DNA of 64,000 bases, taken from IMG/VR virus record IMGVR_UViG_3300043185_000079. One strand, written 5' to 3'. The notes beneath the pieces are model-generated. The model saw only the letters and a list, made by a program, of their open reading frames with translations. It searched no databases and was not told where the DNA came from. The stretch comes from a virus. The translations under genes and the position numbers were made by a program. This document shows positions 18,729 through 40,934 of this stretch, one piece after another. How positions within the stretch are numbered: the first letter of the stretch is position 1; each line of letters starts with the position of its first letter.

Positions 18729-20672
18729 ATGCCGGCTGAGGGCACGAAGAACGCCATCGCTGGGTCGGCAAGCCCCTCGTCTCTCAAGAAGAACGACGAC
18801 GAGGTCGTGGTGGGCACGGTCGAGCAGCGAAGAGGACGGCCCGAACGCGTGGGCGTGGACACCATGAGAACGGCATCGGCCGGGAACGCTCAGGTGGCCG
18901 AGGATAGTCGTCGAGGGGTTCAAGTTGGAAAACCTTCCCGTGTTGTCACGGGAACCATGCGTGGCCGGGCTGGTCCTCCCAGCTTCCGTGACAAGGTAGC
19001 GGCGGCATGTGGCCCTGGATCGGGGAGTTTCGGTGGCCTTGGCGGCGCTGGGGGCGTTGTCGGCGGGGGAGGAGGGAGCGGCGGGGGAGGAGGGTTCTCT
19101 GGCAACTTCGGACCGGGCAGTGTCGCGCAGGCCAGTTCGGGCAACTTCTACAGTCCCGAACTCAGCACGGACTTCCTGGAGCTTCCACAGTCTCTCAACG
19201 AACAGTGGAACTACTACAGGTTTTTCTACAACAACGAGCCGTTCGTCGGACAGGCTATCGATCTACACACGGAGCTGCCGCTGTCGAAGGTCCGGCTGGC
19301 TCGCCCGAGGGCTCAGACCCGCGAACTCGCCGATCAGGCTCTCCGGTTTTGCGAGAAGTGGATCAACCGGATCGGACTCCTGCAGCGGCTTATTGAGATT
19401 GTTCACGAGTACTACCTGATCGGCGAGGTGTTCATCTTCTGCGAGGACGCGAACCCGGACATGCCGCAGGAGGTCCGACAGAAGGTGGTGCGCGAGGTCA
19501 AGCCCGACGGCTCCCTGGTCGAGACATGGGTGGACTACGATGACGCCGACGCGCGAGCGGTGCGGTGGATGAAGAAGAACTACAGGGGCTGGACGGCCAT
19601 CCGCGTGCTGCCACCAGAGCAAGTCCACATCGAGACATTCCCCTTCACGAGCCAGGCTCTCATCGAGCTAATTCCTGACGCCAAGACGAGGCATGTCATT
19701 AACATGGCGGACCAGGGCGACGAAAGGGCCTGGCGCATTGTCGAATCCATGGACTCCGCCGTCGTGGATGCCGTGCGCGGTGGCGCGAACATCCCCCTGA
19801 GCACCGATCCGGACGGGGGCTCTTTTGTCCACTACATGGCGAACAAGAAGTCCCAGTATGAGCCCAGGGGCCACAGTATCCTGCAGCGATGTTTGAGGGT
19901 CTTGGTATTTTCTGACAAACTGAGACAGGCTCAGACTCAAATTGCTTCGCGGCACATGACCCCGATCCGTCTCGTCTACGCTGAGGACATGGACGAGACG
20001 GACACGGAGGCGCTGCGCGACCAGATTGATCTCGCCTTGCAGGACCCCGACTACTCGATCGTGACCAACTTCCAGGTCACGTGGGAGGAGATGAACAGTA
20101 ACGGCCGTTTGCTTGAGCTGTCCTCAGAGTACGACCTCATCAACCGCCAGCTCTACGCGGGTCTCGGCGTCACCGAGGCGCTCCTCAACGGCGAGTCGAG
20201 CTATTCCGGCGACCGCATCAACCTGGAAGTCATCAACACGAGGTACATGCTCCTCCGCGAGAACATCCAGAACCTCGTGGAGGAGAACTTCTTCAAGCCC
20301 ATGTGTCGACGCATGGGGTTCGTCGAGGAGGATGAGGACGGCAACCTGGAAGTCATCTACCCTCGCCTGTCCTTCACGCGGCTCGCTCTCCGGGACAACC
20401 AGGACACCTTCGACGCGCTGTTCCAGCTCTACCAGAAGGGCTCGCTGGACGTGGAGACCATCCTGGATCTACTGAACATCGACCCCGTGACCGTGCGCGA
20501 GCGCCTGGAGCGGGATTTTGCGACGTATAACGACGCGAACTTCAACGAGGTTCTTCGGTCGATGTACGGACGAGTCGGTGACCAGATCGTGGAGGGGTCG
20601 GACCTGGTGGAGAGGATCGCCAAGACCCTCGGGCTCGAGTACAAGAAGCCCGAGCAGGCTGGCCGTTTCTAG
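18729..20672 (+). CDS. portal protein with Gly-rich N-terminal extension
   Basis: FYNNEPFVGQAIDLHTELP, PRGHSILQRCL, GLGVTEALLNGE, PRLSF portal-like segments; downstream of TerL. Confidence 0.8.
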   Translation: MPAEGTKNAIAGSASPSSLKKNDDEVVVGTVEQRRGRPERVGVDTMRTASAGNAQVAEDSRRGVQVGKPSRVVTGTMRGRAGPPSFRDKVAAACGPGSGSFGGLGGAGGVVGGGGGSGGGGGFSGNFGPGSVAQASSGNFYSPELSTDFLELPQSLNEQWNYYRFFYNNEPFVGQAIDLHTELPLSKVRLARPRAQTRELADQALRFCEKWINRIGLLQRLIEIVHEYYLIGEVFIFCEDANPDMPQEVRQKVVREVKPDGSLVETWVDYDDADARAVRWMKKNYRGWTAIRVLPPEQVHIETFPFTSQALIELIPDAKTRHVINMADQGDERAWRIVESMDSAVVDAVRGGANIPLSTDPDGGSFVHYMANKKSQYEPRGHSILQRCLRVLVFSDKLRQAQTQIASRHMTPIRLVYAEDMDETDTEALRDQIDLALQDPDYSIVTNFQVTWEEMNSNGRLLELSSEYDLINRQLYAGLGVTEALLNGESSYSGDRINLEVINTRYMLLRENIQNLVEENFFKPMCRRMGFVEEDEDGNLEVIYPRLSFTRLALRDNQDTFDALFQLYQKGSLDVETILDLLNIDPVTVRERLERDFATYNDANFNEVLRSMYGRVGDQIVEGSDLVERIAKTLGLEYKKPEQAGRF

Positions 20673-20694: not shown

Positions 20695-20714
20695 CCGATA
20701 CCGTGGGAGAGACC

Positions 20715-22784
20715 ATGGTGCTCCCATCGATCGATCTCCCGACTCGCGAGAGTATCGGACATCCTGCGGACACCCCGGCCAGGGTCGGAATTCTCGTCCA
20801 CATGGCTCGACCCTCCAGGCGCCGCGAGTACAGCATGTCTCGGTGCATGGGGGAGGGTTGCAAGCGGTCCCCTGAGATCGAGTGCATCTGGGCCGACGGT
20901 CGTGGCCGCGCCTGGTTCTGTGAGCGACACTTCGACGCCTGGGCTGCGAAAGACACGGACGGAGGACTCCCGAAGGCTATCGTCAAGCAGCGCAGGGTTC
21001 CTGACGGTGTGGTGGGCGAAAAGTACGGCGAGTATCCCGAAGCCAAGACGGCTGCGGGGGCCCAGTTCATCGTCGTGTCCGCGAAGGGCCCTGGACAGTG
21101 GCCTACCGACCCCGTCCAAGTCATGTCCCGGGAAAGGGCCCTCGACTACCAGTCCGCGGGTGTCGTGATAGCCGGGTTTCGCACGGAGCGCGAGGCTGAG
21201 GAATTCGCAGACAAGATGCGTGACGCTGCTATCGACGTGACGGCGCCCGACGGGACGATCGTGTTCTCCGGGCGTCTCCTCGACTTCTCCGATCTGGCTC
21301 CGCGCCTCGGACTCAGGTTCGTCGACCGAGGGCGGCTTTTGCAGATCCTGCACCGTCCCACGACGGTGATCGGATCCGGCAGGCGCCAGATGACGGTCAC
21401 GCGCCGCGCGGGCAAGACCGCCAAGGCCACCGGATGCAAGACAGGCGACGGTCACAGCGTTGGGCTGTTCATCCCGCTCCCGCGAGATTTGGCCAAGAAG
21501 TTCCCTTCGCTGGGCGAGAATGACGACTCACCCTCCCATGTGACATTCCTGTACATCGGAGATTTCAAGGGAAAACGGAAGCAGGAGCGGCTCGTCGCCG
21601 TCCTACGAAGCTGCTTGCGTCGTTGGTGGCCCTCCTGTCGGGCGACACTCGGAGACTTGGCCTACTTCGATCACCACGACAAGGATCGCCGCGTGCCTCA
21701 CGTCCAGGTCGACTTCGACAAGGACATGAGTGGATTCAAGCACCGGCTGCGACAGGAACTTCACGAGGCCGGCATTGATGTTGGCGACACGTTCCCCGAG
21801 TACAAGCCCCACGTCACACTCGCTTACATGCCGGGCATGGATAGCGAGTGGGAAGGCCCTGTTCCGAAGGGGTCGTGGGACTTCGACACAGTCGAGATCT
21901 GGGGACTTCCGGAGGTCCACAAGATCAAGCTGGGGCCGTCGATTCACAAGATCTCGGAGGAGTGGGTTCTCCAAGTGATTGCTCGTCGTGTCGCGATGAA
22001 GCATTATGCTGCCGGTTGGCCGGACCGCGGCAGAGTAGCATCGGTATCCGTGAACGCGACGCACAGGCGCAACGTCACCCTCGTCAAGTGGCTATCCGAC
22101 TTGGCGCAACATCTCGGCGTCGCAAGGGACACGTACGTCGTGGGTGGGGCCGTGCGAAATTTCATCCTCGGCGAGCCCATCAAGGACGTGGATGTCGTCA
22201 TCGACACCATCAAGGCCGGCAGGGATTCTGAATGGCTGGCGCAGCAGGTGGCCAAGGCGATCCCGGTCCCGACCAACGTGACAACGAACCAGTACGGAGT
22301 GGCCATTCTCACCGTCAAGGGCGACTGGGTCCTCGACGACGAGAACCTCCGCGGCGAGATCATCGAAATCGCCAACGCGCGCAAGGAGAGCTACGGAGGC
22401 GAGACGGGCAAGGGTTATAAGCCGCACATGGTAGAGCCCGCCACCATCGAGGAGGACCTCAGGCGAAGGGATTTCACGGTTAATACGCTGATGTGGAGGT
22501 TGCTCGACTTGGCACACGGACCCGACCGGGCCGAGGTCGTCGATCTGATGGGATGTGGTCGGCGAGATCTTGAGCAGCGAATACTTCGATGCCCGCAGGA
22601 TCCAGATATCACTTTTTCGGATGATCCGACAAGGATGCTACGTCTGGTGCGGTTCATGTCCAGATACAACATGAAAGTATCTCCCGACGTAGCGGCAGCA
22701 GTGCGTCGCAACGCGCCCAAGCTCAAGAATGCTCCTTGGGAGGCCATCGCTTCGGTCCTGATGCAGACTCTGGAGGGACGGTAG
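20715..22784 (+). CDS. polyprotein: Cys/His module + 2H phosphoesterase + CCA-adding/poly(A) polymerase head
   Basis: Two HxT motifs (SHVTF, PHVTL); YVVGGAVR..KDVD, RRRDFTVN and FSDDPTRMLR; domains separated by KTA/RVA motifs. Confidence 0.85.
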   Translation: MVLPSIDLPTRESIGHPADTPARVGILVHMARPSRRREYSMSRCMGEGCKRSPEIECIWADGRGRAWFCERHFDAWAAKDTDGGLPKAIVKQRRVPDGVVGEKYGEYPEAKTAAGAQFIVVSAKGPGQWPTDPVQVMSRERALDYQSAGVVIAGFRTEREAEEFADKMRDAAIDVTAPDGTIVFSGRLLDFSDLAPRLGLRFVDRGRLLQILHRPTTVIGSGRRQMTVTRRAGKTAKATGCKTGDGHSVGLFIPLPRDLAKKFPSLGENDDSPSHVTFLYIGDFKGKRKQERLVAVLRSCLRRWWPSCRATLGDLAYFDHHDKDRRVPHVQVDFDKDMSGFKHRLRQELHEAGIDVGDTFPEYKPHVTLAYMPGMDSEWEGPVPKGSWDFDTVEIWGLPEVHKIKLGPSIHKISEEWVLQVIARRVAMKHYAAGWPDRGRVASVSVNATHRRNVTLVKWLSDLAQHLGVARDTYVVGGAVRNFILGEPIKDVDVVIDTIKAGRDSEWLAQQVAKAIPVPTNVTTNQYGVAILTVKGDWVLDDENLRGEIIEIANARKESYGGETGKGYKPHMVEPATIEEDLRRRDFTVNTLMWRLLDLAHGPDRAEVVDLMGCGRRDLEQRILRCPQDPDITFSDDPTRMLRLVRFMSRYNMKVSPDVAAAVRRNAPKLKNAPWEAIASVLMQTLEGR

Positions 22785-22835
22785 GCGTGGCGGGCAATTT
22801 CGCGAGATTCAATGAGATGTTCGGCTGCAGAGTCT

Positions 22836-23276
22836 ATGGCTGACCCAAGGAAAGCACTCAAGGAGATGAAGGCACTGGGTCTGCTGGACGTGGTGTCTGA
22901 GATGATCCGGGAACAGAAGCCGTTCGCTACCTACATGGCCAACCAGCTCAGAGCCGACAGGCGCGTCCAGCTCCTTCTCGACATGATGGACCTTGGCGTC
23001 CCGGCCAGTATGCCCCTGTCCTTCCTCGACGCGGCCGGACGACAGCGCCTGCGCGAGCTGACCGTATCGATGTCTGAGGACGAGGCGTCGAGGCTCGTCG
23101 ATCTCCTGATTAAGCCGCCCGTGGACAGCATGCGCGTCATCACAGAGCTTGCCCTGGAGGGGCCGGCGCGGGCCGGGATCCTGCCCGCAGCCAGGCAGCT
23201 GATTCTCGCGCACCCGTGGCTGGCTAACGATTCCCGCCGGCTGACGGAGGAGGTGATCCGGCAGTGGACCAAATGA
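22836..23276 (+). CDS. C-terminal body of the CCA-adding enzyme, in frame after a TAG
   Basis: DPRKALKEMKALGLLD continues the tRNA nucleotidyltransferase fold; same frame as 20715..22784. Confidence 0.65.
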   Translation: MADPRKALKEMKALGLLDVVSEMIREQKPFATYMANQLRADRRVQLLLDMMDLGVPASMPLSFLDAAGRQRLRELTVSMSEDEASRLVDLLIKPPVDSMRVITELALEGPARAGILPAARQLILAHPWLANDSRRLTEEVIRQWTK

Positions 23277-23425
23277 TCACCCGTGTCGCCGCCCGACATG
23301 CCGTGCTCCGTTCGGCAACGGGTTACTTCCGCGAGGGCGAGGACATCCTGTTCGATCGCTACAACAAGGCCGGAAGAGGAACCGGACGATGGGCCTCTTC
23401 AACATCTGGAAGTTGTCTGAGGTGA
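23273..23425 (+). CDS. 50-aa leader ORF (MITRVAARHAVLRSATGYF...), possibly a frameshifted N-terminus of the 1678-aa polyprotein
   Basis: ATGA coupling; begins with the RVAARH motif then RSA; overlaps the next ORF in the -1 frame. Confidence 0.5.
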   Translation: MITRVAARHAVLRSATGYFREGEDILFDRYNKAGRGTGRWASSTSGSCLR

Positions 23426-26400
23426 GAGGCCTGCCTCCAAAAACCGGACGTGGAGTCGCGTTTCATGGTACGCGGTCGAAGAATCTCGATCACCTGCGGC
23501 GTTATGGGCTCGTGCCTGGAGCACGCAGTGCGTACACGGACGCCTATAGTAAGTACGACGACGGGCGTCATCTGTTCTTCACAGACAATGAGGACTTGGC
23601 GCGCCATTACGGAGACCTGATTCTGCGATTCCCTTGGCCAAGCGAAGCCAAGCCTGATGTTAACGAATTCGGACGCTATCTTCCTGGACAGTTCGTCTCC
23701 TTGCGGAAAATCCCGCCAGACGAGATCGATGTTTTGCGTGAGGGTACTTGGGAACCTCTCGTTGGAGGCTTGTCGAAGCAGGCCTGCATCATCGTCGGCA
23801 AGGACTTCGACGGCCACCTCTGTCTCCTCAAGAACCGGGATCGGTCGTACGACGTCAAGCTCCAGATCATGCACATGGAGTTCAACGGCGTCGAGATGGC
23901 GTTCGTACTCGATCTCGAGACCGGCTACCTGGAAGGGGTCAACGAGCACGGGATCGGCGTTGTCAACACGACGCTCATGGTGCTTCATGATGAGGCAGAA
24001 GGGCACTCGACCAAAACCAAGGGCAAGACGACGCTCAAGTCGAAGGATGGCCCGAAGATCTTCCACGCCCTCATACAGGACAATCTCCAAGACGCGGTCG
24101 ATGTTCTCGTGAGTTTCCGGGGAGGGATCCGCGGCCACACGTTCGTGGCCGACGGACAGACGCTGCTCAGTATTGAGTGCACTCGAAAGAACCCGGCCCG
24201 GGTACATCATCTCGATCCGGGGAGGGTCAACACGAGGACCAACCATGGCGTCTCATATCCCGAGGCTGGGTACACGCGCGGCGAGGACTATGTCTCGTCC
24301 ATCGTCCGTCGATGGGAGGCGCAGAAGCGGATTCAAGGGGTGAAGCGGCCAGAGGCCGCTGCTCCGGCCCTCGCAACGCTGATCGACGAGGCCGACAGCC
24401 CGTTCAATCCTGTCCGAGTGACTGACAAGATGCGGACGACGAGCCAGCTCCTCATCGATACGAGCACTCCGTCTCTCTACCTCTACCTTATTCCAGGTCA
24501 CGCGCGCGTCACCAAGATTCTCAATCTCCTTCCCGGAGGCAGAGCACCGAAGATTCCCGTCCGGGTGTTTCGCTACCGCAAGCGGATGGAAGACCGAGAC
24601 TTTGAGGACGACGGCCATGAGATGAAGGATGAAGTGGCAGATCCAGGAGGTGACTTGCTGGAGAAACGAACTGCTCGCTATAAGGACAAGAAGACGGTCA
24701 AGACCAAAGACGGCGACGAGCGAGTCATCTACGAGTACGGCCCGCGACAGGTCCTCAACCGCAACAAGGCCAAGGCGGAGCGTATCGAGAATCTGCGCAA
24801 GCAGATGTCGGCTCTCCGTCGGAAGGTCAAGAAGGACCTGGAGTCGTCCGACGACCAGAAACGCGCTGTTGCTCTCGCCGTCGCGCTGATGGACGAAACC
24901 TATGAGCGGCCCGGCAACGAAGCCAGTGCCAGCGAGGGTCACTACGGCGTGACGACGTGGCAGAACCGGCACGTCAAGTTCCGCAACGGAAAGGCCACGA
25001 TCACATACGTCGGGAAGTCTGGAGTCGAGCACAAGAAGGTCGTCGAGACACCGGCAGTCGTGAAGGCTCTCAAGATGCTCTGCAAGGGCCGAGGGAAGGA
25101 TGATCGCCTCATCGACGTCGAGGCGGCTGACGTCAACGAGTTCCTACGCTCGTTCGAGATTACGGCCAAGGACATCCGAGGGTTCCACGCGAACCGCGAG
25201 ATGAAGGACCGTCTCAAGAGGATCCGCCGTGAGGGGCCGGATCTCCCGCGGCCCCTCAAAGATCGAGACAAGATCCTGAAAGAGGAGTTCAAGCAGGCGC
25301 TGGCCGAAACCGCTGAGGCCGTAGGCCATACCGAATCCACGCTGCGCAGCCAGTACCTCGTCCCCGGGCTCGAGGACGAGTACATGAAGGACGGCACCGT
25401 CAGCGACAGCCACGTGAAGTCCGGGGGGGCGGCCCTTCTAGGCGCTCCTGGGGTCCAGGAGCGCCCAGAAGGCGCGCTGAGGGTCGCCGCCACCCGAGGC
25501 ACACCGACGGAGCGGAGGATCCTGGCGAACGCCCTGCTTGCCCCGGTGCTCGTAGTGCGCGATCGCCGCTGGTGGCTCGACGAGGCGCCGTCCCTCTACC
25601 GCCTGGCCCGTGACCACGAGCGGCCTAGACCTGTCATCGACGGTCTCCGGTTCGACCCCGACCTGTTCGCGATGCTCTGGTACGAGGACGAGGACGGGAA
25701 CAGGTTGCCCGAACCGCCCATTGGGGACCTCGCAATTCCGGAGGACTCCCATACACAGCATTCGAGGTTCCCCAACGTGCTGCGGCACACCATCCTGTTG
25801 CTTAATGACGACGGGACGTCGTCGAGCCTCGCGGCTGGGGAAAGTTCCTTTCCCTCTGATCTCGTGACGCAGATGGTTCGCAGCGGCGACTGGGACACCG
25901 CAGACGCAATCATGGTTGCCGGCCAGGCCTGCGAGCGATGCCTCAACGTCCTGCTCCACCATTACGGGATCGGGGATGGCTACCCGTTCGGGTCCGAGGA
26001 CTATTGGCGGGCGAACACAGTCTGTTCGATGTGCGAGGACATCGGCCGTCGAATGGCGACGAAGTCTCCCGCCGAGAAGGAGGATGAGAACGTCGAGAAG
26101 ATGCTACGGCCGGAACCGAAGAAGAAGCCTCCGCGCTACGACCTCCGCAACAACAGAACGCTGGAGGACCGGGACGAGGACCTGGAGGGTATGGGCGCAG
26201 GAGATCGTGGGGATCGAGACTTGAGTCTCAAGTGGAACAAGGTCGCTCATCGGGTGGCGTTCCGGTGGCTGGCCGTTCCCCTCGCGCCCGCTCCTCTGCG
26301 TGTGGCAATGCGGCGCATCGCCAGGCAGTTCCCCTCCGAGTTCCAGGACGAGGTGGCACACCAGCGGTTCACGCATCCAGAGACGCGCAACTCAGTCGGG

Positions 26401-28425
26401 TTTGGGTCGTTGCCTAGCGAGGAGCAGTCGAAGATCTACAAGCGGTGGAAAAGCAAGGCGCGGGAAGACAAGGCTCCACCAGAGGATGCCGAGAAATCCG
26501 AGAAAGGCAAGGAGGATGACGTCGAGCGTGAACTCGACGAGGCACGCGATCGGGTCGATTCTCTGGAGGATAAGGTTGATAAGGCCAAGGACCAGATCAA
26601 GGAATCGCGCGAAAACATCAAGGGGATCAAGAATCTGCTAGAGAAGGCTGGCGAGACGGCCCGAGGACAGCTCGAAGGAAAGCTGCGCGAGGAGGTCTCC
26701 AAGATGCGGAAGGCCGAGGACGCGCTGGAGGAAGTCACCGACGAATTGGAGGCGGCGCGCAAGCGTGTCGATCAGCTCAAGGCGGAGCGTAAGGCTCCCA
26801 CGAGCCGCGAAGACAAACGACGCGAGGATGAAGAGAAGCGCCGCAAGGAACGTGCCGAGGAGACTCTGGACGAGGTGCGCGATGCGGTGCGGGGGATGGT
26901 GTCGAAGGACTCCGACATCCCCGAGGACGTTCGGGCACAGATTGAGACCGCCTTCGCCAACTTGAGCGAGGAGCAAGTAGAGGATTTTTCCGAGGCATTC
27001 CAGAAGTCGTTGGGGAAGCTCGTCAGAACGGACGCTTCGTCCGAGGAGGCTGCGAACCTGGCCAACGCCTCGGTCCGCGCCGATCTGAGTGAGATTGAGG
27101 ATCCCGCAGAGCTGGCACGCACAGTTGCCGAAGTCGCGTACGCACGCAACGTGGTGACCAATCCTCTCGTCGTGGGTGGGAAGCCGCTCGGACAGACGAA
27201 GATGGACGATGCTGGCTACTCCGGTCGTGCTATGGAATCGTTCCGTCAGTTTCAGCGTCTCAGCCCTGCTCTCCGCGAGAGTGCGGCGGAAAAGATCGCG
27301 GAAGAGCTTCGCGGTCTCGACGAGGACTCCGATAAGGCACAAGAGCTACAGGCGATTCTCACAGGCATCAACACGGCTCATATCGCGGACACAGGCCACG
27401 CTTTGCCGGGTCGACCGCAGCCGAACAAAGGTGCCGCGGCTCTCATCCGTCGCATGGTGGAGAACGGTCAAGCCGAGACGATGTTCAAGCCGGTCGAGGA
27501 CTTCTTCGCCGACGACAGCCGCGCCGCGATGCAAAAGGCGCTCTCGGAAATGGACGACGCGGAGGTTGCTGACTTCGTGATCGGAGACGACGGGGATCAC
27601 CCATTCGGTAAGCTCCGCGAGGCCATGCAGGAGAAGGGCGCCAGTGAGTACAAGCAGCTCATCAAGGACTTCCTGATCCAAGATTTCATGAGTGACATCT
27701 GGGGTGATCGGGCCGTACGCGATTACATGGAGTCCGCTGGTTTCGCCGACTTCGATAATCCGGAGGCCAGGGCGCAGTTGCTTCGGGACACGAGGTACGC
27801 AACTGCACCCGAGGCAGACATGCAGGCGATCGCCAGGGCGCAGGCGGCGATCGCGGCCGGTCAGAAACCTGATCCAGAGGATGAGGAGCGTGCTCGAAAT
27901 TTCCTCGATCCAGAGACGGGGGGCGGGATCCGTGGGAAACTCCGCAAGCTCATGGAGATCTTGCAATCCAAGGTCAAGAAGCGTGTTGTCACCCCCGCGA
28001 CCGCGGTGATCAACCACTTCCTGGAGACGGGCGAGGCCGAGGTCCTCCACCAGGAGACCCTTCCACATCCTGACGAGGGCCGGGGCGGGGACACGGAGGC
28101 CAAGGAAGACGAGGGACACGGGTTGGGCGACGTGTGGAAAACTGACGAGGGGAACTGGCGCGCCAAGAATCTCGACGGAGTGCCCAAGACTTTCGATACG
28201 CGAGAGAAGGCCCAAGCATACGCCAAGGGCGGCAAGGACCGCAGGAAGCCATCGCGCGGCAGCGAGGCCCCTGGCGAGGAATTCTCGGCCGAGTTCACCG
28301 TGCCCGTCGAAGAACGAGGACCGACGAGGTTTGCCAACCATGTCGCGAACGCTTGGCTGGCCCAAGTGCGCAAATGCCACCCAGACGATCCGGGGCGTCC
28401 GCGAGTGGTTTTTGATACGGCTTGA
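23389..28425 (+). CDS. 1678-aa multi-enzyme polyprotein (ART-fold, Ntn-hydrolase, topoisomerase IB, Zn module, coiled coil)
   Basis: FHGT..GL..FFT..A..Y..IPPDEI; CIIV..KNRD..GVNEHG..TNH; RPGN..GKSG..KDIR..GHT..SQY. Confidence 0.85.
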   Translation: MGLFNIWKLSEVRGLPPKTGRGVAFHGTRSKNLDHLRRYGLVPGARSAYTDAYSKYDDGRHLFFTDNEDLARHYGDLILRFPWPSEAKPDVNEFGRYLPGQFVSLRKIPPDEIDVLREGTWEPLVGGLSKQACIIVGKDFDGHLCLLKNRDRSYDVKLQIMHMEFNGVEMAFVLDLETGYLEGVNEHGIGVVNTTLMVLHDEAEGHSTKTKGKTTLKSKDGPKIFHALIQDNLQDAVDVLVSFRGGIRGHTFVADGQTLLSIECTRKNPARVHHLDPGRVNTRTNHGVSYPEAGYTRGEDYVSSIVRRWEAQKRIQGVKRPEAAAPALATLIDEADSPFNPVRVTDKMRTTSQLLIDTSTPSLYLYLIPGHARVTKILNLLPGGRAPKIPVRVFRYRKRMEDRDFEDDGHEMKDEVADPGGDLLEKRTARYKDKKTVKTKDGDERVIYEYGPRQVLNRNKAKAERIENLRKQMSALRRKVKKDLESSDDQKRAVALAVALMDETYERPGNEASASEGHYGVTTWQNRHVKFRNGKATITYVGKSGVEHKKVVETPAVVKALKMLCKGRGKDDRLIDVEAADVNEFLRSFEITAKDIRGFHANREMKDRLKRIRREGPDLPRPLKDRDKILKEEFKQALAETAEAVGHTESTLRSQYLVPGLEDEYMKDGTVSDSHVKSGGAALLGAPGVQERPEGALRVAATRGTPTERRILANALLAPVLVVRDRRWWLDEAPSLYRLARDHERPRPVIDGLRFDPDLFAMLWYEDEDGNRLPEPPIGDLAIPEDSHTQHSRFPNVLRHTILLLNDDGTSSSLAAGESSFPSDLVTQMVRSGDWDTADAIMVAGQACERCLNVLLHHYGIGDGYPFGSEDYWRANTVCSMCEDIGRRMATKSPAEKEDENVEKMLRPEPKKKPPRYDLRNNRTLEDRDEDLEGMGAGDRGDRDLSLKWNKVAHRVAFRWLAVPLAPAPLRVAMRRIARQFPSEFQDEVAHQRFTHPETRNSVGFGSLPSEEQSKIYKRWKSKAREDKAPPEDAEKSEKGKEDDVERELDEARDRVDSLEDKVDKAKDQIKESRENIKGIKNLLEKAGETARGQLEGKLREEVSKMRKAEDALEEVTDELEAARKRVDQLKAERKAPTSREDKRREDEEKRRKERAEETLDEVRDAVRGMVSKDSDIPEDVRAQIETAFANLSEEQVEDFSEAFQKSLGKLVRTDASSEEAANLANASVRADLSEIEDPAELARTVAEVAYARNVVTNPLVVGGKPLGQTKMDDAGYSGRAMESFRQFQRLSPALRESAAEKIAEELRGLDEDSDKAQELQAILTGINTAHIADTGHALPGRPQPNKGAAALIRRMVENGQAETMFKPVEDFFADDSRAAMQKALSEMDDAEVADFVIGDDGDHPFGKLREAMQEKGASEYKQLIKDFLIQDFMSDIWGDRAVRDYMESAGFADFDNPEARAQLLRDTRYATAPEADMQAIARAQAAIAAGQKPDPEDEERARNFLDPETGGGIRGKLRKLMEILQSKVKKRVVTPATAVINHFLETGEAEVLHQETLPHPDEGRGGDTEAKEDEGHGLGDVWKTDEGNWRAKNLDGVPKTFDTREKAQAYAKGGKDRRKPSRGSEAPGEEFSAEFTVPVEERGPTRFANHVANAWLAQVRKCHPDDPGRPRVVFDTA
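23785..24600 (+). other. Ntn-hydrolase domain (C45/C59-like) starting at Cys133
   Basis: KQA|CIIVG..KNRD, EGVNEHGIGVVN, RTNHG. Confidence 0.7.
24676..25420 (+). other. type IB DNA topoisomerase domain
   Basis: Catalytic pentad R (RPGN), K (GKSG), R (KDIR), H (GHT), Y (SQY) is intact. Confidence 0.85.
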
Positions 28426-28647
28426 GGGAGGGCAAACGTCCCTCGCGACGCTGTAAACCGATTTCTTGTCCTGTCTCGGGGGGTTTTCAATCCCTTCAAA
28501 GGCCGTCAGCGAGGAATCAGCACGCGGTTGCGGTAGGCCATCGATCCCAAAGGGGTGGTGAAGGTGGGTTTGTGTTCCTCGCGGAGGGCATTGAGATCTC
28601 GTGGGGATCTCGGGGGTGTTTTTCAGACCCGAAAACCCACGTTAGGT

Positions 28648-28662
28648 CGGTTTTCCCCTTAT
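28648..28662 (+). promoter_or_regulatory. CGGT-N8-TAT motif
   Basis: CGGTTTTCCCCTTAT upstream of the head-morphogenesis operon. Confidence 0.6.
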
Positions 28663-28740
28663 ATGGGGCGCGAATAAGCGAAGGGCTCTGCCCTCCCGTC
28701 CCGAGGACGTTGAAGCCCGCCCGCCAGGAGAACCAATCCA

Positions 28741-29217
28741 ATGTCATCCAAACCGATCACGAAGGAAGCGGCCCTCAAGGTGTCCCGCCTCCTGGACCAA
28801 GCAGCCACCACGTTCCAGAAGCACCACGTTGCTCTCGGGATCAAGCCGAAGATCGCGAATGACTTCGCACTTCGGTGTGACATCCTCTCCGACCACGTGG
28901 AGAAGCAGGCGGGCATCGACCGTCGCGCGCAGATGGATCCCAAGGAAAACTACACCGAGGATGCTCTGGGCCCGGATGACTTCGACCCAGCCGAGATCGG
29001 CGAGCAGACTCCCGGCGCGCTGCTGCGGAACGAGGACGAGCCCTACATGGACACGTTCAACCAGCAGTGGTTCGATCAGCTTCGCGAAGTTCAACAGACG
29101 GGTCAGTTCTCCAACGCGAAGACCGCCGCGCAGCTCATCAAGCACATGGCCGGCCTCCTCCACGCTCACGGCATCCCTCTCGTCGTCCGCAGGAAGAAGA
29201 GCCCGAAGGTCGCCTGA
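28741..29217 (+). CDS. putative head/core protein with KQA/RRA/KTA motifs
   Basis: AGGAG RBS; VEKQAG, DRRAQ, AKTAA. Confidence 0.65.
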   Translation: MSSKPITKEAALKVSRLLDQAATTFQKHHVALGIKPKIANDFALRCDILSDHVEKQAGIDRRAQMDPKENYTEDALGPDDFDPAEIGEQTPGALLRNEDEPYMDTFNQQWFDQLREVQQTGQFSNAKTAAQLIKHMAGLLHAHGIPLVVRRKKSPKVA

Positions 29218-29274: not shown

Positions 29275-29904
29275 ATGAAACGTACAGCAGACGCAGGAAA
29301 CTGGCAGGCCCGCGGACAAGAGTTCGCGGTGGGGCAAGCTGTGCGTCTCGTCAATGGCAGCCCAACCGACGAGGGTCGCGTCACCGCTGTCTGGCCTGGA
29401 ATCGGATGCGTCGATGTGCAGTGGCCACACACGTCGTATCGCCACTTGGTTGAGGATCTCCAGATTGTCAACCCGGGCGAGGACGAGTTCGTCGCGCCCA
29501 TGCACGAGGACGTGCCGGGAGGGCCCCCGTCCTCGGCGTGGGTCTCGCAAGGGGCCCCTCAGACGAACGAGATCACGCACGAGGACCCACGAGTCGAGTT
29601 CGTCCACGACATCGCGGGCAAAGTGGCATCTCAACCGTCTGCGCAGCGGGTGGCGATCGCGTTCGTGAAGCATTCTCTTTACTGGCACGCTCGGGACCGG
29701 AAGTACCGCGTCAGCCGGGACGAACACGCAGAGGGCCGGTATAGATGCCCCACCCGTGGGTGCGAACAGATGTTGCGCCGTGCAACCTACAAGATGGAGA
29801 ACGGATCTCCGATCAAGCTGCTCGCCTGCGGCTCGTGCTTGTTCATGATCCGCGAGCATGACGTACTCTCTGACCACTGCACTCCACATGAGGAGACCTG
29901 CTAG
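29275..29904 (+). CDS. hypothetical protein with RVA motif and C-terminal zinc ribbon
   Basis: MKRTA; GKVASQPSAQRVAIAF; CPTRGC..CGSC. Confidence 0.65.
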   Translation: MKRTADAGNWQARGQEFAVGQAVRLVNGSPTDEGRVTAVWPGIGCVDVQWPHTSYRHLVEDLQIVNPGEDEFVAPMHEDVPGGPPSSAWVSQGAPQTNEITHEDPRVEFVHDIAGKVASQPSAQRVAIAFVKHSLYWHARDRKYRVSRDEHAEGRYRCPTRGCEQMLRRATYKMENGSPIKLLACGSCLFMIREHDVLSDHCTPHEETC

Positions 29905-29905
29905 C

Positions 29906-32884
29906 GTGGCGTTCCTCAAGCGAGCCAGCGGGGTCGTCGTTCATCGGGGGTGGTCTCCAGAGAACTGGGGCAACTTCGTCGGCCAGAACAAGGAGCGACT
30001 CGCGAATGGGCCGTACCGAACGGCCGCCGGGGCGCTGAACTTGGTCGCGCAGGCGAGCGAGATCCTCGGCGAAGAGTTCGATCCGAAGAACTTCCTCCTG
30101 ACGCACGCGACGATCGTGGCCTCGGTCGACACGGAGGAGGCCGGGAACGTCAAGCTCGGGTCCGTCGTCGAGGACGGACGCAAGATCCTGCGCAAGTTTG
30201 GCGACTACAGGATCACGCCCGACACCGAGCAGTGGATCAACAACAACCACGACAGCTGGTCTCGCGGGGTCCTGCTCAAGAGCTACCGGACGTTCGTCGG
30301 TGCCCACAACTTCCTCGAGCACTGCCAGCTCGAGCACCTGTCGAAGGGTCGAATCGTCGACGCCGTCGCCCGCGACATCGGACCGTCGATCTACGTCGAC
30401 ATCCTCGTCGCCACCAACCGCAAGCACGCGAGCCTCATCCAGGACATCGAGAACGGCCGGATGGGCACGCTGTCCATGGGGTGCACTTGCGTGCACACGA
30501 CCTGCACGAAGTGCGGGAACGTGGGCCATGATGAGACTGAGCTTTGCTTCCCTCCCGGCACTCGTGTACTGCTTGCCGAAGGCAAGTACCGTCCCATTGA
30601 GGAGATCGTCGAAGGCGATTTCGTGCTCTCTCACACGGGTAGGCGTCGTGCTGTTGTTAGGACCATGCGCCGTGAGTACGAGGGCAACTTGGTGGTCCTC
30701 GACGTAGAGGGCGTTCCGGTCTCGGTGAAGGCAACGCCCAAGCATCCGTTTTGGACGCTGCGACCAGCACAGATCTGTGCTTGCGGCTGCGGTCAACCCC
30801 TTCGACGGACCGTCGAGCACGAACGGGGATCCGCCAAGGCATTCAAGCGTCGATTTTTGCCACACCATGCCGGCTCTCTACACAACGTAGTATCGATGGA
30901 CGCGTACCAGCGCATCTTCGATACCGAGATGGAGTTCGTCGAGGCACAGGATCTCCGTCGAGGAGATTACTTGGCCTTCCCGATTCCGCGCGACGTCGAG
31001 AACAGCGCGGATGCCACAGTCAACCGGGCTCGTTTGATCGGGTTCTTTCTGGCCGAAGGCAGTTTCATTAAGCGAGACGGCAGGAGGGTCGGCATCGCCT
31101 TTTCGTTTGGGTACCACGAGTACGACACCCTTGCGGCCGAGGTCCAGAGGCTTCTGAACCTTGAGTTTGGACGAGACGAGCGTCGGCAAGATTGTCTTGA
31201 CTGGCAGGATTTGGTTGCTCGCAATCACACGCGGGCAATCAAAAGGCGCGCCAACAGCCGCGCCGTCCCTCCAGAGGTGACGTGTCCGACATGTGCTGCG
31301 CCCTCGCAGTACGCCTACAATGCCCGTTTCAAGGCGGGGCACGACGACTGTTATCAGTGCAAGGTATGTGGGCGCTCGTGGATCCACCAAGCGGACAGAT
31401 CCCTTCACGCCACACGATACAAGTGTCCGATTGACAGACCTGAGACTGGGTCCGTCGAAGTCCGGCTCATGGACGAAGAGGCGGCGGATTTTTTCTACAG
31501 CTACTGCGGCGAATACGCGAACGAGAAGGCGCTGGATCCATCGGTCCTGCGTTGGGCTCCTGATGTCCAGAGACACGTTTTGTTCGGGTGGCTCGGAGGA
31601 GATGGGACCCAGAGTGTGGTTGGTATCCGAGGCAACACGGCTTCCTTCCATCTCCAGAATCAGATGCACATTCTCGCCGCGCGGTGCGGTCTGTATGCCT
31701 ACAGAACGGTCGTGTTCGACGGGAGATCAGGGACCATCGATCAAGTGGTGAACGGTGACGGCTCTGTCACGGCGCGAGATTGCAGAGGCTGGCTTCCGAG
31801 CTTTGGTCTCGTGCTATCTGAGCCGAAGGGGTTCAATGGCGAGGTCCGGTTTTCCGATCGGGAGCCGCGGACCACCCTCACCGAGATGACAGATAGTTAC
31901 AAGCGCGTTGGGGACTGGTTCGTCTATCGGATCCGAGATGTTGGCCGCGAGTCGTACTGCGGAACGGTCCACAATCTGGAAATCTCTGAAGACAACTCCT
32001 ACGTGGTGGACGGCCTAGCTGTTCACAACTGTAATCATGTGCGCTACGAGAAGGGCAACGCGTTCTACGACCAGAACGGAGTCCGCAGGAAGGTCGCCGA
32101 GCTGTGTGGCCACGCCAGCGAGGACCCGACCGGCGGGGTGAACTTCATCGAGGCGAGCTGGGTCGCCGTGCCGGCCTTCGCCGGCGCCGTGATGCGGAAC
32201 ATCTTGCAGCCGGAGGCCGTGAACGTCGCCACGAACGAGCAGGTGCGTAAGGTTCTTGCGTCACCGCCCCCCGAGTGGACTGATACTGATGACCACATAC
32301 AGAAGGCAGCTTCAACGGAAGTTGCCAAAGTGGTGACTCCAGCGCGGCAGCCGAGGACCCAGGTCCACGTTGCTCAGTTCGGTCCGTCCGAGGATGAAAG
32401 CAGCGACGACGCTGCGACCGAGAGTACCGACTCTCTTACCGCGTTGGAGGACGAGATCGAGAAGTATCTTCTCGACAAGGTCAAGAAGCGCATCAAGGAC
32501 AAGCTGAAGGCCGACGTCCAGGAGGAGGCGGCCTCTGAGGGTGAGCTGGCGACGTCTACGGGAGACTCCGTGGTCCACCAAGCCGCTCTTCGCATGGCGT
32601 TCGGCACGGACACGCTCCTGCGAATTGCTGGTTCTGACGTCGAGCTGGTCGACGGGCTCGCACGTCTCGCCGCCTCGCTCGGCATCAAAGTTTCGAGGGA
32701 TCTCTATCGCACAGCACTCCGAGTGGGGCCCGCTCGGAGCCAGGAGTCCCTCGATGGGTACCTCTCCCGTTGTGGAGAAGTACTCGGTCGTCATCCGACG
32801 ACAGGAGAAGCCAAGACCCTTGTACGTCTTGGGCGGATCCTTTCGATGCGGGCCCGCCGCTCCTCCGCACGGGGCGGAGATTGA
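29906..32884 (+). CDS. prohead (capsid maturation) protease with intein
   Basis: NFLEH, KGRIVDA, LSMGC and FIEASWVAVPAF HK97/herpes-type protease motifs; position upstream of scaffold and MCP. Confidence 0.8.
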   Translation: MAFLKRASGVVVHRGWSPENWGNFVGQNKERLANGPYRTAAGALNLVAQASEILGEEFDPKNFLLTHATIVASVDTEEAGNVKLGSVVEDGRKILRKFGDYRITPDTEQWINNNHDSWSRGVLLKSYRTFVGAHNFLEHCQLEHLSKGRIVDAVARDIGPSIYVDILVATNRKHASLIQDIENGRMGTLSMGCTCVHTTCTKCGNVGHDETELCFPPGTRVLLAEGKYRPIEEIVEGDFVLSHTGRRRAVVRTMRREYEGNLVVLDVEGVPVSVKATPKHPFWTLRPAQICACGCGQPLRRTVEHERGSAKAFKRRFLPHHAGSLHNVVSMDAYQRIFDTEMEFVEAQDLRRGDYLAFPIPRDVENSADATVNRARLIGFFLAEGSFIKRDGRRVGIAFSFGYHEYDTLAAEVQRLLNLEFGRDERRQDCLDWQDLVARNHTRAIKRRANSRAVPPEVTCPTCAAPSQYAYNARFKAGHDDCYQCKVCGRSWIHQADRSLHATRYKCPIDRPETGSVEVRLMDEEAADFFYSYCGEYANEKALDPSVLRWAPDVQRHVLFGWLGGDGTQSVVGIRGNTASFHLQNQMHILAARCGLYAYRTVVFDGRSGTIDQVVNGDGSVTARDCRGWLPSFGLVLSEPKGFNGEVRFSDREPRTTLTEMTDSYKRVGDWFVYRIRDVGRESYCGTVHNLEISEDNSYVVDGLAVHNCNHVRYEKGNAFYDQNGVRRKVAELCGHASEDPTGGVNFIEASWVAVPAFAGAVMRNILQPEAVNVATNEQVRKVLASPPPEWTDTDDHIQKAASTEVAKVVTPARQPRTQVHVAQFGPSEDESSDDAATESTDSLTALEDEIEKYLLDKVKKRIKDKLKADVQEEAASEGELATSTGDSVVHQAALRMAFGTDTLLRIAGSDVELVDGLARLAASLGIKVSRDLYRTALRVGPARSQESLDGYLSRCGEVLGRHPTTGEAKTLVRLGRILSMRARRSSARGGD
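30545..32029 (+). mobile_element. intein (495 aa) with LAGLIDADG homing endonuclease
   Basis: Starts CFPPGTRV; block B TPKHPF; LIGFFLAEG and LFGWLGGDG; ends VHN followed by Cys+1. Confidence 0.92.
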
Positions 32885-32931: not shown

Positions 32932-34365
32932 ATGTCGTCACGCACGCGACTCACCTGGACCAAGGGAGGCACACAGAAGAAGGCTTCGCCCCCACCGCAA
33001 ATGCCCGCTGTCGATCGTACGGAGGGGCCCGATCATCCGGCCTATTACCCCGATCCCGAGGCGGACCAGTACGAGAAGGGGGACACCTCTGCATGGGCCG
33101 AGGACCCGCACATTCCGACGGACCCTGAAAGTCCGCCGCCCGCGATGCCCGGCAACCTCACCACCGAGCCGTTGGATCACCCGGCGACATCGGATTTTCA
33201 GAAGAAGCCTGAGAGTCCCGCGGCCGCGGCCGGTGGCGGGGCGGGCAAGGCTGCTGCCTCGCGGATGACCCTCAGAGAACAGGCTGAGCAACGTGCCACG
33301 CTGTGTGTCCGCATCGCCAGCGCTATGCTGAAGAACGCCTCCGTGCGCGAGATCGAGGACAAGGCATTCCAGCTGATGGATCTCGATGACGCGCAACTCC
33401 GCGCGACCCTCGCCACACTCAAGTTGGTCGCTGGCGAGGAAGGAGACAAGGAATTCGAGGAGGGCGAGGAGTCCGAAGGCACCAAGGACTCCGACGAAGG
33501 CAAGACGGCCACCCTCGATGTCACCGCTCGTGTCGATCGACTGGAGCAGTCGGTCGGTCGTCTCATCCAGGCCATGAGCCACTTCTTTGGCATGGATGAC
33601 GAGCCCCAGGAGACAACAGCGGGAGAGGACATGAGCGACGACGACCTCATGGCCTACCTCATGGCCGAGGACACGGACGGCGACGGCATCGACCAGTCAC
33701 AGAACGACTTCCCGCAAGGCTACGACATCGACAAGCTCTCCCAGGGCGACGAGGAGGAGATGCTCCGCGCCATGCTCGAGGAGATGGAAGTCGAGGAAAA
33801 GATGGCGAGTCACGCCGAAGATGTCGTCGATCCCCTCGCCAAGGGCCCCTCCATCCAGAGCGGTGAGGGCGGCAATGTCGATCCCGCGCCGGAACCCGAG
33901 ACCCCGCAGGTCGCGGGTCCGCAGACGGGCGGCACCGCCGTCACGGCCACCGAACAGGCCAACCCCGCCGACAACGACATCGAGATCACCGCAGGCGCCG
34001 ATCCGATGGGTCTCATGGAGACCGAGAAGGAAGCCAGCGACGATCTGATGGCCCTCTACGCCGACATCGATCTGCCCAAGACGGCCGGTGAAGAAGACGA
34101 GGAGGAAGACGAGGAGGAAGACGAGGAGGAGGAAGAAGACGAGGAGGAAGTCGAGGAGGAGGACAAGGCGGCCGCGAAGAAGAATGCGGCAGCGAAAAAG
34201 GACGAGCCCAAGCTGCGTCCGCAGCCCAAGGCTGCCTCCAAGGGCCCCAAGACCCTCGGCAACGTCCCGCAGACCAAGACTGCCAGCAGCGAGATCGCGG
34301 AACTCCAGAAGCTCTGGGAAACCGCACCCGACGTCTCCGAGTACTTCGGAGTTCCACGGAGCTGA
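32932..34365 (+). CDS. acidic capsid scaffold protein
   Basis: AAGGAG RBS; very acidic and low-complexity; lies between protease and capsid genes; many K-x-A sites. Confidence 0.65.
   Translation: MSSRTRLTWTKGGTQKKASPPPQMPAVDRTEGPDHPAYYPDPEADQYEKGDTSAWAEDPHIPTDPESPPPAMPGNLTTEPLDHPATSDFQKKPESPAAAAGGGAGKAAASRMTLREQAEQRATLCVRIASAMLKNASVREIEDKAFQLMDLDDAQLRATLATLKLVAGEEGDKEFEEGEESEGTKDSDEGKTATLDVTARVDRLEQSVGRLIQAMSHFFGMDDEPQETTAGEDMSDDDLMAYLMAEDTDGDGIDQSQNDFPQGYDIDKLSQGDEEEMLRAMLEEMEVEEKMASHAEDVVDPLAKGPSIQSGEGGNVDPAPEPETPQVAGPQTGGTAVTATEQANPADNDIEITAGADPMGLMETEKEASDDLMALYADIDLPKTAGEEDEEEDEEEDEEEEEDEEEVEEEDKAAAKKNAAAKKDEPKLRPQPKAASKGPKTLGNVPQTKTASSEIAELQKLWETAPDVSEYFGVPRS
34093..34164 (+). repeat. 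GAAGACGAGGAG tandem repeat (poly-E/D tract)
   Basis: Three exact 12-bp units followed by degenerate copies. Confidence 0.8.
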
Positions 34366-35243: not shown

Positions 35244-36122
35244 ATGTCGAACGGAATCTCCAACGAGGTCAAGCAAAAGCTGATCAGCGAGTACATCAAG
35301 ACCCCAGCCGGTCGTGCCAAGCTCGCTGCCAGCCTCACCCAGCCTCTCCGCCTGCGGAGAGACTACACATCGGTCGGCCGCAAGACCTTCCTGGTCGAGC
35401 AGCTGCCGGACGGCGCCCTCCCCATCTACGACAAGGACCCGGATGTCACCGCGTTCATCGTCGGCGAGGAAGGGCAGAACATCGTGGCGGTCACCAAGCC
35501 GCGCCGCGTCATCTTCCCGCTGTTCGAGATCGCCTCGAACCCGGAGATCCCGCTCACCCAGATCAAGGAGCGCCGTTTCGACCTCATCGAGCGCGCCCAG
35601 GACCTGGCCCGAGCGCAGATCCAGGCGGCGGAGGATGAGCGCGTTTTCGCGGTCCTCGATGCCATCGCAACCAACGGCTTCGACTCCGTCCCGGGCGGGA
35701 CCAACCCCGACATCCCCGTGGTGGCGCCGATCTCGGGAGCGGTGCTCGCGGATGCCTTCGCCCTGATCGAGCGGCATGATCTCCGGGTCGCACGCGTCTA
35801 CATGAACGCGCGCGATTACGCGGACATCCGCAAGTTCGGGCGAGACATCCTCGACATCGAGAGCCAGGCCACGTTGCTCAAGACCGGCCTCCAGGCGACC
35901 CTCTGGGGCGCCCAGGTCATCACGAGCCGCATCGTGCCGGCGGGCACGGTGTACGTGTGCTGCGAGCCTGAGATGTTCGGTCGCATTCCGGTGCGTACCG
36001 AACTCACCGTGCTCTCGGCGGACGACCCGAAGGCGCGAACCATCGGGTTCTCGGTGTTCGAGAATCTCGGCATCGGGGCCTACAACCCGCGTGGTCTGAC
36101 ACGGCTCACCGTCACCCGCTAG
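35244..36122 (+). CDS. major capsid protein (HK97 fold)
   Basis: 292 aa; EIASNPEIPL..ERAQDLARAQIQAAED, YMNARDYADIRKF, GLQATLWGAQV; strong codon bias; followed by a terminator. Confidence 0.8.
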   Translation: MSNGISNEVKQKLISEYIKTPAGRAKLAASLTQPLRLRRDYTSVGRKTFLVEQLPDGALPIYDKDPDVTAFIVGEEGQNIVAVTKPRRVIFPLFEIASNPEIPLTQIKERRFDLIERAQDLARAQIQAAEDERVFAVLDAIATNGFDSVPGGTNPDIPVVAPISGAVLADAFALIERHDLRVARVYMNARDYADIRKFGRDILDIESQATLLKTGLQATLWGAQVITSRIVPAGTVYVCCEPEMFGRIPVRTELTVLSADDPKARTIGFSVFENLGIGAYNPRGLTRLTVTR

Positions 36123-40320: not shown

Positions 40321-40934
40321 GCGAGATTGTTGACAAGCTGCGAGGGCTACTGGCTGCGGCCGGGGAATTGTCCCTGGATGATCGTGTGGAGATCTTCAAT
40401 GAAGTCTCCCAGACGATGAAGAAATTCCTAGGTCTTCCACATCCGGTGACTGGCGTGAAATTGGTACGGATTGACACGGTTCGCGGCAACGATTACAACC
40501 CGAACGTGGTGGCCCCGCCGGAGATGCGCCTCCTGCAGCACTCGATCCGCAAGGACGGTGTGACGATGCCGGTGGTCGTCGCGCGGGATCCCGAGACTGG
40601 GCAGAACGTAGTGGTGGACGGTTTTCACCGGACGACCGTGATCAAGACGTGCCCCGACGTCCACGAGAGTCTGGGGGGTTATGTACCCGTCGTCGACCTC
40701 GACAAGACCCTGGAAGATAGAATGACGTCGACGGTGCGGCACAACTTGGCCAGAGGGACACATCAGGTGGAATTGAGCGCCAAGCTGGTGACGGCGCTGA
40801 CGAAGCACCACTGGTCCAACGAGAGGATCAGCGAGGAACTCGGCATGGACCCGGACGAGGTATTGAGGCTCAAGCAGATCACCGGGTTGGCCGAGGCGTT
40901 CCGAGATCGCGAGTTTTCCAAGGCATGGGAGTGA
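40317..40934 (+). CDS. ParB/Srx-domain protein (IbrB/YbdM-like)
   Basis: NDYNPNVVAPPEM, VDGFHR, STVRHNLARG, ELGMDPDEVLRLKQITG. Confidence 0.85.
   Translation: MSEIVDKLRGLLAAAGELSLDDRVEIFNEVSQTMKKFLGLPHPVTGVKLVRIDTVRGNDYNPNVVAPPEMRLLQHSIRKDGVTMPVVVARDPETGQNVVVDGFHRTTVIKTCPDVHESLGGYVPVVDLDKTLEDRMTSTVRHNLARGTHQVELSAKLVTALTKHHWSNERISEELGMDPDEVLRLKQITGLAEAFRDREFSKAWE

Follow-up and report, generated by a model that had tools for sequence, protein, structure and literature searches.

Polyvalent proteins of phages and conjugative elements have already been likened to viral polyproteins (Iyer, Burroughs, Anand, de Souza and Aravind 2017; PMC5512222). In T4-type and giant phages the head proteases cleave after x-x-E, and T4 head proteins carry N-terminal targeting propeptides of 10-20 residues (PMC5694885); the processing of ejected proteins by a head protease at a motif has a precedent (PMC10052503), and the scaffold of T4-type and giant phages is dense in the x-x-E protease motif (PMC5694885, PMC10052503). 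Here we describe a giant multidomain open reading frame (ORF; P0001) located at 23389..28425 on the + strand of a 64,000-nucleotide stretch of viral DNA (IMG/VR virus record IMGVR_UViG_3300043185_000079; G+C of about 62%), the whole of which is called the window. It is a single open frame of 1678 amino acids (aa) and sits in a phage head module, between the genes for the portal and the head maturation protease, with four other ORFs also in between. A first-pass annotation had proposed that an ADP-ribosyltransferase (ART)-fold domain, an N-terminal nucleophile (Ntn) hydrolase, a type IB topoisomerase (TopoIB) and a CxxC..CxxC module are joined in this ORF, and all of these parts were found. The best-supported reading, which we favour with moderate confidence from comparison with its relatives, is that the giant protein would be a precursor, from which the head protease would release several packaged enzymes.

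Module borders and the [KR]-x-A motif

About 40 homologues of the giant protein, of 1100-2600 aa, were found to have the TopoIB and the C-terminal two-fifths of the chain in common, and 15 IMG/VR viral contigs (36-618 kb) carried relatives with ORFs of 1337-3133 aa; no relative was found in representative bacterial and archaeal genomes (GTDB contigs). BLAST breakpoints placed borders near residues 128-133, 404-429, 683-697, 885-888, 1030-1045 and 1564-1580, and between these borders the homologues had added or swapped NUDIX, GGACT/AIG2, PolyA_pol, LigD 3'-phosphoesterase, cREC, HD, DUF5661 and GNAT modules, the GNAT module being known from source annotation only. Throughout the approximately 40 giants the extra modules were inserted between conserved [KR]-x-A sites; domain shuffling at the motif junctions of orthologues had been named as a check by the first-pass annotation. 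Several homologues had an insert of about 150 aa just before the fourth border, which began with [KR]-x-A-[AT]-P and ended with K-T-A followed by T-K-S, and several started straight at M-K-[KR]-E-A immediately before the Cys of the Ntn module. The exchangeable modules of six relatives (P0012, P0033, P0036, P0038, P0042 and L017) had a common theme of RNA-end repair or nucleotide signals, comprising NUDIX, GGACT, CCA-type nucleotidyltransferase, cREC, LigD 3'-phosphoesterase and HD, with a 2H domain in the adjoining gene.

The tripeptide [KR]-x-A was present at four module borders of the giant (residues 130, 427, 698 and 888). At border 1 (K-Q-A before C133; 23776..23787, + strand) all of the giants that could be aligned (27 of 27) kept the form [KR]-x-[AG]; it was kept at border 3 (R-V-A before A701; 25480..25491, + strand) in 83% of the aligned homologues, followed by a conserved A-E-x-G-T-x-T-E-R-R, and at border 4 (R-M-A before T891; 26050..26061, + strand) in 89%, followed by T-K-S-x-A-E-K-E-D-E. 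Border 2 (24667..24678, + strand) reads R-T-A before R430-Y-K in the window, and mostly R-V-A-A before R-Y-K-S-K-K-K in the homologues. Most of the non-border [KR]-x-A sites of the giant were kept in <25% of the homologues, as compared with 83-100% at borders 1, 3 and 4. The earlier claim that the modules are delimited by K/R-x-A was therefore sustained at four borders and by their conservation in homologues, and failed with regard to overall enrichment and to the register of border 2, both of which are weighed in the Discussion.

The same motif studded an acidic scaffold-like protein encoded at 32932..34365 (+ strand), with 12 [KR]-x-A-[SAGT] sites versus 1.8 expected (z of 8). These sites were mostly isolated amid acidic sequence, and several were conserved in position in the orthologue from one of the metagenome contigs carrying a homologous locus (L004). 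The scaffold orthologues of two such loci contained 15 sites versus 2.1 expected (L002) and 8 versus 1.7 (L004), and an acidic ORF of 430-553 aa downstream of the giant was the most motif-enriched ORF in 9 of 12 further IMG/VR loci and the second in two more, so that the comparison of scaffold proteins covered 14 related viral loci besides the window. Because the sites found at the borders of the giant also stud the scaffold protein, this comparison suggests that the giant is probably processed by the prohead protease. Small ORFs after the giant gene were enriched in [KR]-x-A as well (e.g. 6 versus 2.4, 8 versus 3.4 and 9 versus 2.6 expected), at 28741-29217 and 29275-29904 in the window, 11305-11790 in L002 and 15641-16213 in L004, and their products could be core proteins or additional substrates of the protease.

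A helix-like motif, R-V-A-x-x-[HWFY], was observed 9 times in the window ORFs versus 1.35 expected from shuffles (maximum of 6 in 300). It was found in the ORFs at 11024, 20703, 23389, 29275, 35244, 56280 and 56690, often near termini or module borders, and twice in the giant (K-V-A-H-R-V-A-F-R-W-L, plus the near variant H-V-A-N-A-W-L).

The Ntn hydrolase and its leader

Residues 133-404 (23785..24600, + strand) correspond to a C45/AAT-like Ntn-hydrolase module with C133 as the predicted nucleophile and N-R-D-R at 150-153. NCBIfam C45_proenzyme (NF040521) matched it with an E of 1e-9 and 38 bits, below the cut-off of 85, and Pfam AAT with 16 bits, the cut-off being 23.2; the 56% identical Ntn module of L010 reached 25.2 bits with Pfam AAT, above that cut-off, and several of the 249 shorter Ntn relatives are annotated as Pfam AAT. 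The profile of the module had no match among solved structures. Cys133 directly follows K-Q-A, as had been noted before, and is the first residue of the module, invariant in 32 sequences together with K16, R18, D19 and R20. The offset of Asp19 from the Cys equals that of BSH Asp21 (from Cys2), and Arg18 lies two residues off BSH Arg18. The module is like the C45/AAT and PVA/BSH enzymes in that an invariant Cys heads it and in that its distant relatives begin with M-C as BSH and PVA do. In contrast to the C45/AAT enzymes, the window copy scored below the curated cut-offs and its leader looks made for a foreign protease and not for self-cleavage.

To describe these leaders, 142 Ntn modules were surveyed. 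The Cys was immediately preceded by [KR]-x-[AGS] in 83 modules, with leader lengths of 5, about 20 or >80 residues, and by [LIVM]-x-E in 18, which belong to another lineage; 40 modules, from distant relatives, started with M-C; no leader of mixed P3/P1 type was found among the 142. Many of the leaders of about 20 residues followed the pattern R-[VI]-A-x-x-[HY]-x-x-[KR]-x-A before the Cys, and the same kind of leader preceded the TopoIB in the TopoIB-first proteins of L015 and L021, where it ended in [KR]-x-A right before [RK]-Y-K (M-A-R-R-V-A-I-Q-H-L-L-R-S-A before K-Y-K in L015). The jumbo Chryseobacterium phage MA9V-1 belongs to the [LIVM]-x-E group, having a stand-alone Ntn protein in which L-N-E precedes the Cys, and it encodes a T4-type Peptidase_S77 protease.

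The main rival to processing by the head protease is self-cleavage at Cys133 only: the Ntn module would cut itself between A132 and C133, the remainder would stay one 'polyvalent' protein, packaged and ejected whole, and [KR]-x-A would be a linker or helix-capping feature of the lineage. C45 is an autoproteolytic family according to its NCBIfam name, its enzymes can self-process, and some polyvalent proteins are transferred at full length (PMC5512222). However, the Cys is preceded by one of two strict tripeptides, each specific to a lineage and each matching a protease code, and not by a single pattern that goes with the enzyme. Modules of TopoIB, an enzyme without any chemistry for processing itself, carry the same leader, and the enrichment in the scaffold shows that the motif is relevant outside the giant. 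We therefore regard self-cleavage alone as unlikely.

The topoisomerase and the ART-fold domain

Judged by profile and catalytic residues, residues 430-683 (24676..25437, + strand) are a complete TopoIB. Pfam PF01028 (Topoisom_I) matched residues 457-651 with 94.7 bits (cut-off 23.7), and in the alignment to the variola and vaccinia enzymes the catalytic R, K, R, H and Y were all present, within the motifs F-I-R-F-G, V-G-K-D, D-L-R-T-Y, V-G-H-T and R-A-Y, at columns that were at least 90% conserved among 24 homologues. The Topoisom_I core and the intact R-K-R-H-Y pentad resemble those of the poxvirus-type enzymes (vaccinia/variola, mimivirus, Deinococcus); the difference is that the domain is here embedded in a 1678-aa protein and that its best E versus solved structures was just 3e-11. 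Vaccinia packages its own TopoIB, and our literature searches turned up no TopoIB of a phage virion.

Family searches, modelling and structure matches indicated that residues 14-128 (23428..23772, + strand) are an ART-fold domain of the H/aromatic/[EDQ] type, with the triad H26, F63 and D114. When the window is compared with the closest homologue, the domain proves to be inserted after R-G-L-P. For residues 23-126 we found 67 relatives, small or embedded domains in which Y-H-G-T, F-F-[ST]-D, L-R-F-P-W-P and I-[EDQ]-V recur as family motifs. Pfam PARP was matched by 7 of 43 members, and Tpt1 and ART-PolyVal by one each; in the same 43 members the triad positions were H in 42, F, Y or W in 43 and E, D or Q in 40. 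The AlphaFold 2 model of the domain had a pLDDT of 85, and the Foldseek matches listed from the top 50 were all ART-fold proteins. With VIA-align the model was closest to Tpt1/KptA (Z of 9.9; root-mean-square deviation of 2.1-2.5 A over 81-86 residues; about 20% identity), the ART toxins ranking after them with Z of 7-9.

The domain thus resembles the NAD-binding lobe of Tpt1/KptA, with which it has the H-G-T motif in common. Nevertheless, this domain of about 105 aa aligned only to chain residues ~85-182 and to profile positions 91-122 of 182, and we rejected a Tpt1 RNA 2'-phosphotransferase orthologue because the N-terminal RNA-binding lobe is absent. An ART of the T4 Alt type (R-S-E) was also rejected, since a nearly invariant His stands in place of Arg in the first NAD-binding motif, Y-H-G-T; the first-pass annotation had cited Alt as an ART packaged by T4.

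Remaining parts of the chain

The module between borders 3 and 4 (residues 701-887; 25489..26049, + strand) has no assigned fold and ends in a motif of four nearly invariant Cys (C848, C851, C879 and C882; nucleotides 25930-26034, + strand). The AlphaFold 2 model of residues 693-1040 had a pLDDT of 71; the best match in the PDB by Foldseek had an E of 0.3, a wide VIA-align search reached a Z of 3.8 at best, and the TM-score in the ESM Atlas was at most 0.26; the weakness of these matches is no proof of a new fold.

After border 4 we found a region (26059..26343, + strand) that was the most conserved stretch of the protein apart from the TopoIB. It leads from T-K-S-x-A-E-K-E-D-E through the invariant E-P-K-K-K-P-P-R-Y-D-L-R and an acidic stretch to K-W-N-K-V-A-H-R-V-A-F-R-W-L. 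The region was also present after the HD domain in L017 and after the TopoIB of a 508-aa protein encoded by a 485-kb phage. It may be considered a candidate docking or targeting element. The 508-aa protein (L006, 8461-9987, of the uncultured phage LR745208.1) combines the TopoIB and the tail peptide with an N-terminus of HAD-like type (D-F-D-G-T), with the borders R-N-V-A-A before K-Y-Q and L-K-Q-A before T-K-T and a terminal V-A-S-R-W; it looks like a minimal form of the architecture.

The long coiled coil of the first-pass annotation was retained as probable at about residues 1036-1240 (26494..27108, + strand), the evidence consisting of weak SMC/XhlA-type matches and composition only. It is followed by a conserved, probably helical region (residues 1241-1564; 27109..28080, + strand), kept at 22-30% identity in distant giants, and by a conserved C-terminal part (28126..28422, + strand) with the motif G-D-V-W...G-N-W-R-A-K-N and R-F-A-N-H-V-A-N-A-W-L, the R-F-A of which was kept in 19 of 19 aligned sequences. 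A motif of about 35 residues, G-x-V-W-x-T-x-x-G-x-W-x-A-K-N...F...A-x-x-[YF]-A-x-G, lies at 28126-28250 of the window and occurred once or repeatedly in the C-terminal parts of P0031, P0034, P0035, P0036 and P0038. Residues 1230-1678 had no Atlas feature match, searches of Pfam and NCBIfam with them yielded nothing but coiled-coil noise, and in PHROGs the giant belonged to an unnamed family only.

Head-gene surroundings

Upstream of the giant we located the large terminase (16024-17916), the portal protein (18729..20672, + strand; phrog_16240, E of 3e-34) and a gene for a 2H phosphoesterase joined to a PolyA_pol/CCA-type nucleotidyltransferase (20703..23276, + strand). Downstream there are small ORFs, including 28422-28862 and 29275-29904, the head maturation protease with a LAGLIDADG intein (29858..32884, + strand; PHROG matches), the scaffold-like protein, a 221-aa ORF and the major head protein (35244..36122, + strand; phrog_2522, E of 1e-50). 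The order portal, 2H/nucleotidyltransferase, giant, small ORFs, protease, scaffold, ORF of 219-221 aa and major head protein was common to three loci, namely the window and the neighbourhoods of two homologous giants from metagenomes (contigs L002/L003 and L004). The intein-free protease orthologue of L004 (18014-19627) matched phrog_18299, 'head maturation protease', with an E of 2.7e-13. In the window the intein and its LAGLIDADG endonuclease occupy roughly residues 230-724 of the protease; with 1414 aa, the orthologue in L002 is even longer. Directly after the major head protein, the region 36220-40934 contains two LAGLIDADG/helix-turn-helix ORFs that resemble homing endonucleases, together with genes for an HNH endonuclease, a ParB-like protein and a PAPS-reductase-like protein (phrog_2302). 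For a structural region, so many selfish or accessory genes are unusual.

The location beside the terminase and portal would fit a role in packaging, and the giant could accordingly be an intracellular morphogenesis or DNA-handling factor and not virion cargo, with the TopoIB for instance easing the torsion of packaging and the head operon serving for timing only. Pfam and PHROG scans of the giant detected no known head-internal domain, such as MuF, and no embedded metallopeptidase, and the former result would suit such a factor. On the other hand, the variable modules (ART, NUDIX, 2H, LigD 3'-phosphoesterase, HD and GNAT) look directed at the host or at repair and not at assembly, and the N-terminal leaders, like the motif that recurs in the scaffold, recall those of proteins targeted to the capsid and processed by its protease (PMC5694885). 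A morphogenesis factor was thus considered improbable.

State of the window copy

The homologues open with a module of about 80 aa (M...R-V-A-A-R-H..., Y-F-x-V-G-D-E-I-L-F-G-K-Y-K and ...G-R-K-Q-N-x-x-M-G-L-Y-x-I-W), and in the window a deletion cuts this module off from the 1678-aa protein that the first-pass annotation described. Comparison with L002, the closest homologue, revealed an ORF of 50 codons in another frame (23273..23425, + strand), which starts with M-I-T-R-V-A-A-R-H... and holds the first 30 residues of this module; its start codon shares bases with the stop codon of the ORF before it (ATGA), and a frameshifting deletion of 76 nucleotides puts it out of register with the giant. 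The giant ORF starts at an internal Met that is conserved in the family and is preceded, at a distance of eight bases, by A-A-G-A-G-G-A. As the overlap showed no slippery heptamer, we do not propose that a -1 frameshift links the two ORFs. The 2H/PolyA_pol gene, which in L002 is one ORF of 1006 aa (2735-5755), is here divided into ORFs of 693 aa (20703-22784) and 154 aa (22812-23276) by an in-frame TAG at 22782-22784, inside a short insertion (region 22741-22830), and it is without the 163-aa internal module of its L002 counterpart.

The frameshifting deletion at the 5' end and the in-frame TAG in the neighbouring gene might mark a defective genome with a decaying copy of the giant, the ORF being out of use. 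This we hold to be very improbable: the frame of 1678 codons is open, every catalytic and invariant family residue is retained, the conserved internal Met is preceded by the A-A-G-A-G-G-A noted above, and several homologues are naturally without N-terminal parts.

Discussion

The architecture described above can be understood as a chassis, conserved in the family, that comprises the TopoIB, the T-K-S/K-K-K-P-P-R-Y-D-L-R/R-V-A-F-R-W peptide, the coiled coil and the C-terminal part, and that would carry exchangeable modules, here the ART-fold domain, the C45-like Ntn hydrolase and the four-Cys module. According to the precursor reading, the cargo precursor would enter the prohead, and the adjoining head maturation protease would cut it after [KR]-x-A, at residues 132, 429, 700 and 890, releasing fragments of about 15, 33, 31, 21 and 88 kDa. 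The cut after residue 132 would free Cys133, the obligatory N-terminal nucleophile of an Ntn enzyme, and the hydrolase would therefore become active only on capsid maturation. Finally, the enzymes would be ejected along with the DNA to act at an early stage of infection, the TopoIB on DNA topology and the ART domain, with NAD+, on a protein or nucleic-acid target.

Besides the capacity of C45 enzymes to process themselves, several observations weigh against this reading. The cleavage by the protease, the packaging, the ejection and all of the substrates are steps that we infer. The giant as a whole contains 22 [KR]-x-A sites versus 25.5 expected from its composition; this is no enrichment, it would fit self-cleavage of the Ntn module, and we rejected plain enrichment in the giant as evidence. 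The register of border 2 differs, because the homologues usually read R-V-A-A before RYK, so that in most of them Ala stays at P1 and the basic residue is found at P4, and no motif was seen at the sixth border (residues ~1564-1580). As the conserved [KR]-x-A sites 635 and 738 lie within folded domains, the tripeptide alone cannot define a site and its context must matter. The [KR]-x-[AGS] leaders before the Cys come from essentially one clade, for which reason the match of leader to protease rests on few independent events, and the leader type was related to the protease type in a single verified genome, that of MA9V-1. Searches of Pfam and PDB with the protease returned nothing, the family being known from PHROG matches alone. 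Moreover, the window copy may be partly degraded, because its N-terminal module was lost by the frameshifting deletion and the upstream gene has an in-frame stop.

A wider proposal, which we advance tentatively and rate at somewhat short of an even chance, is that the uncultured lineage represented by these genome pieces of 36-618 kb would use a new head-protease code, with cleavage after [KR]-x-A, and a R-V-A-x-x-[HWFY] helix tag, as a general means of loading and releasing enzyme cassettes around a virion TopoIB. The Ntn hydrolase would be a zymogen unmasked by the prohead protease, and where phages have a protease of the T4 type its leader would have changed to [LIV]-x-E. If the code is true, the capsid cargo of a large group of uncultured phages would be predictable from sequence by leader and motif, and type IB topoisomerases would join the enzymes that phages may deliver with their DNA. 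The exposure of the Ntn nucleophile by the head protease would also be a clear case of enzyme activation tied to capsid maturation. The modules of the relatives (2H, CCA-type nucleotidyltransferase, LigD 3'-phosphoesterase, cREC, NUDIX, HD and the Tpt1-like ART lobe) point to pre-packaged RNA repair or removal of signalling nucleotides as a form of early counter-defence.

The first-pass annotation had read the ORF as a virus-style polyprotein matured during head assembly. The conservation of the border motif, the enrichment in the scaffold and the shared leaders support a protease code of this kind; the analogy with polyproteins, however, had already been published, and the general concept is known from polyvalent proteins and from the head cargo of T4 and phiKZ. 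Like the polyvalent proteins (PMC5512222), the giant joins unrelated effector-type enzymes among the virion genes of a phage with portal and terminase, and it includes an ART domain, with 2H, GNAT and nucleotide-directed domains in its relatives. Unlike them, its hub is a TopoIB, which is named once only in that paper, and its release is proposed to come from the prohead protease, acting in trans at a defined tripeptide, and not from an embedded peptidase.

The T4 Alt and internal proteins processed by gp21 and the ejection proteins of phiKZ and SPN3US provide the second comparison. In those systems, as apparently here, a short N-terminal leader ends in a tripeptide motif that recurs in proteins of core or scaffold type, and enzymes are packaged for ejection; at this locus, too, one short motif is common to the scaffold and to the putative propeptides and the module borders. 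The T4 and phiKZ proteases cut after Glu (x-x-E), whereas the code proposed here has Ala at P1 and Lys or Arg at P3, and the protease of the window matches PHROG families only. In addition, propeptides are what is lost in T4 and phiKZ, whereas several enzymes would here come from one chain. In comparison with all of these systems, the TopoIB-centred family, the code of Ala at P1 and Lys/Arg at P3 with its R-V-A tag, and the likely protease-dependent unmasking of an Ntn hydrolase appear to be new.

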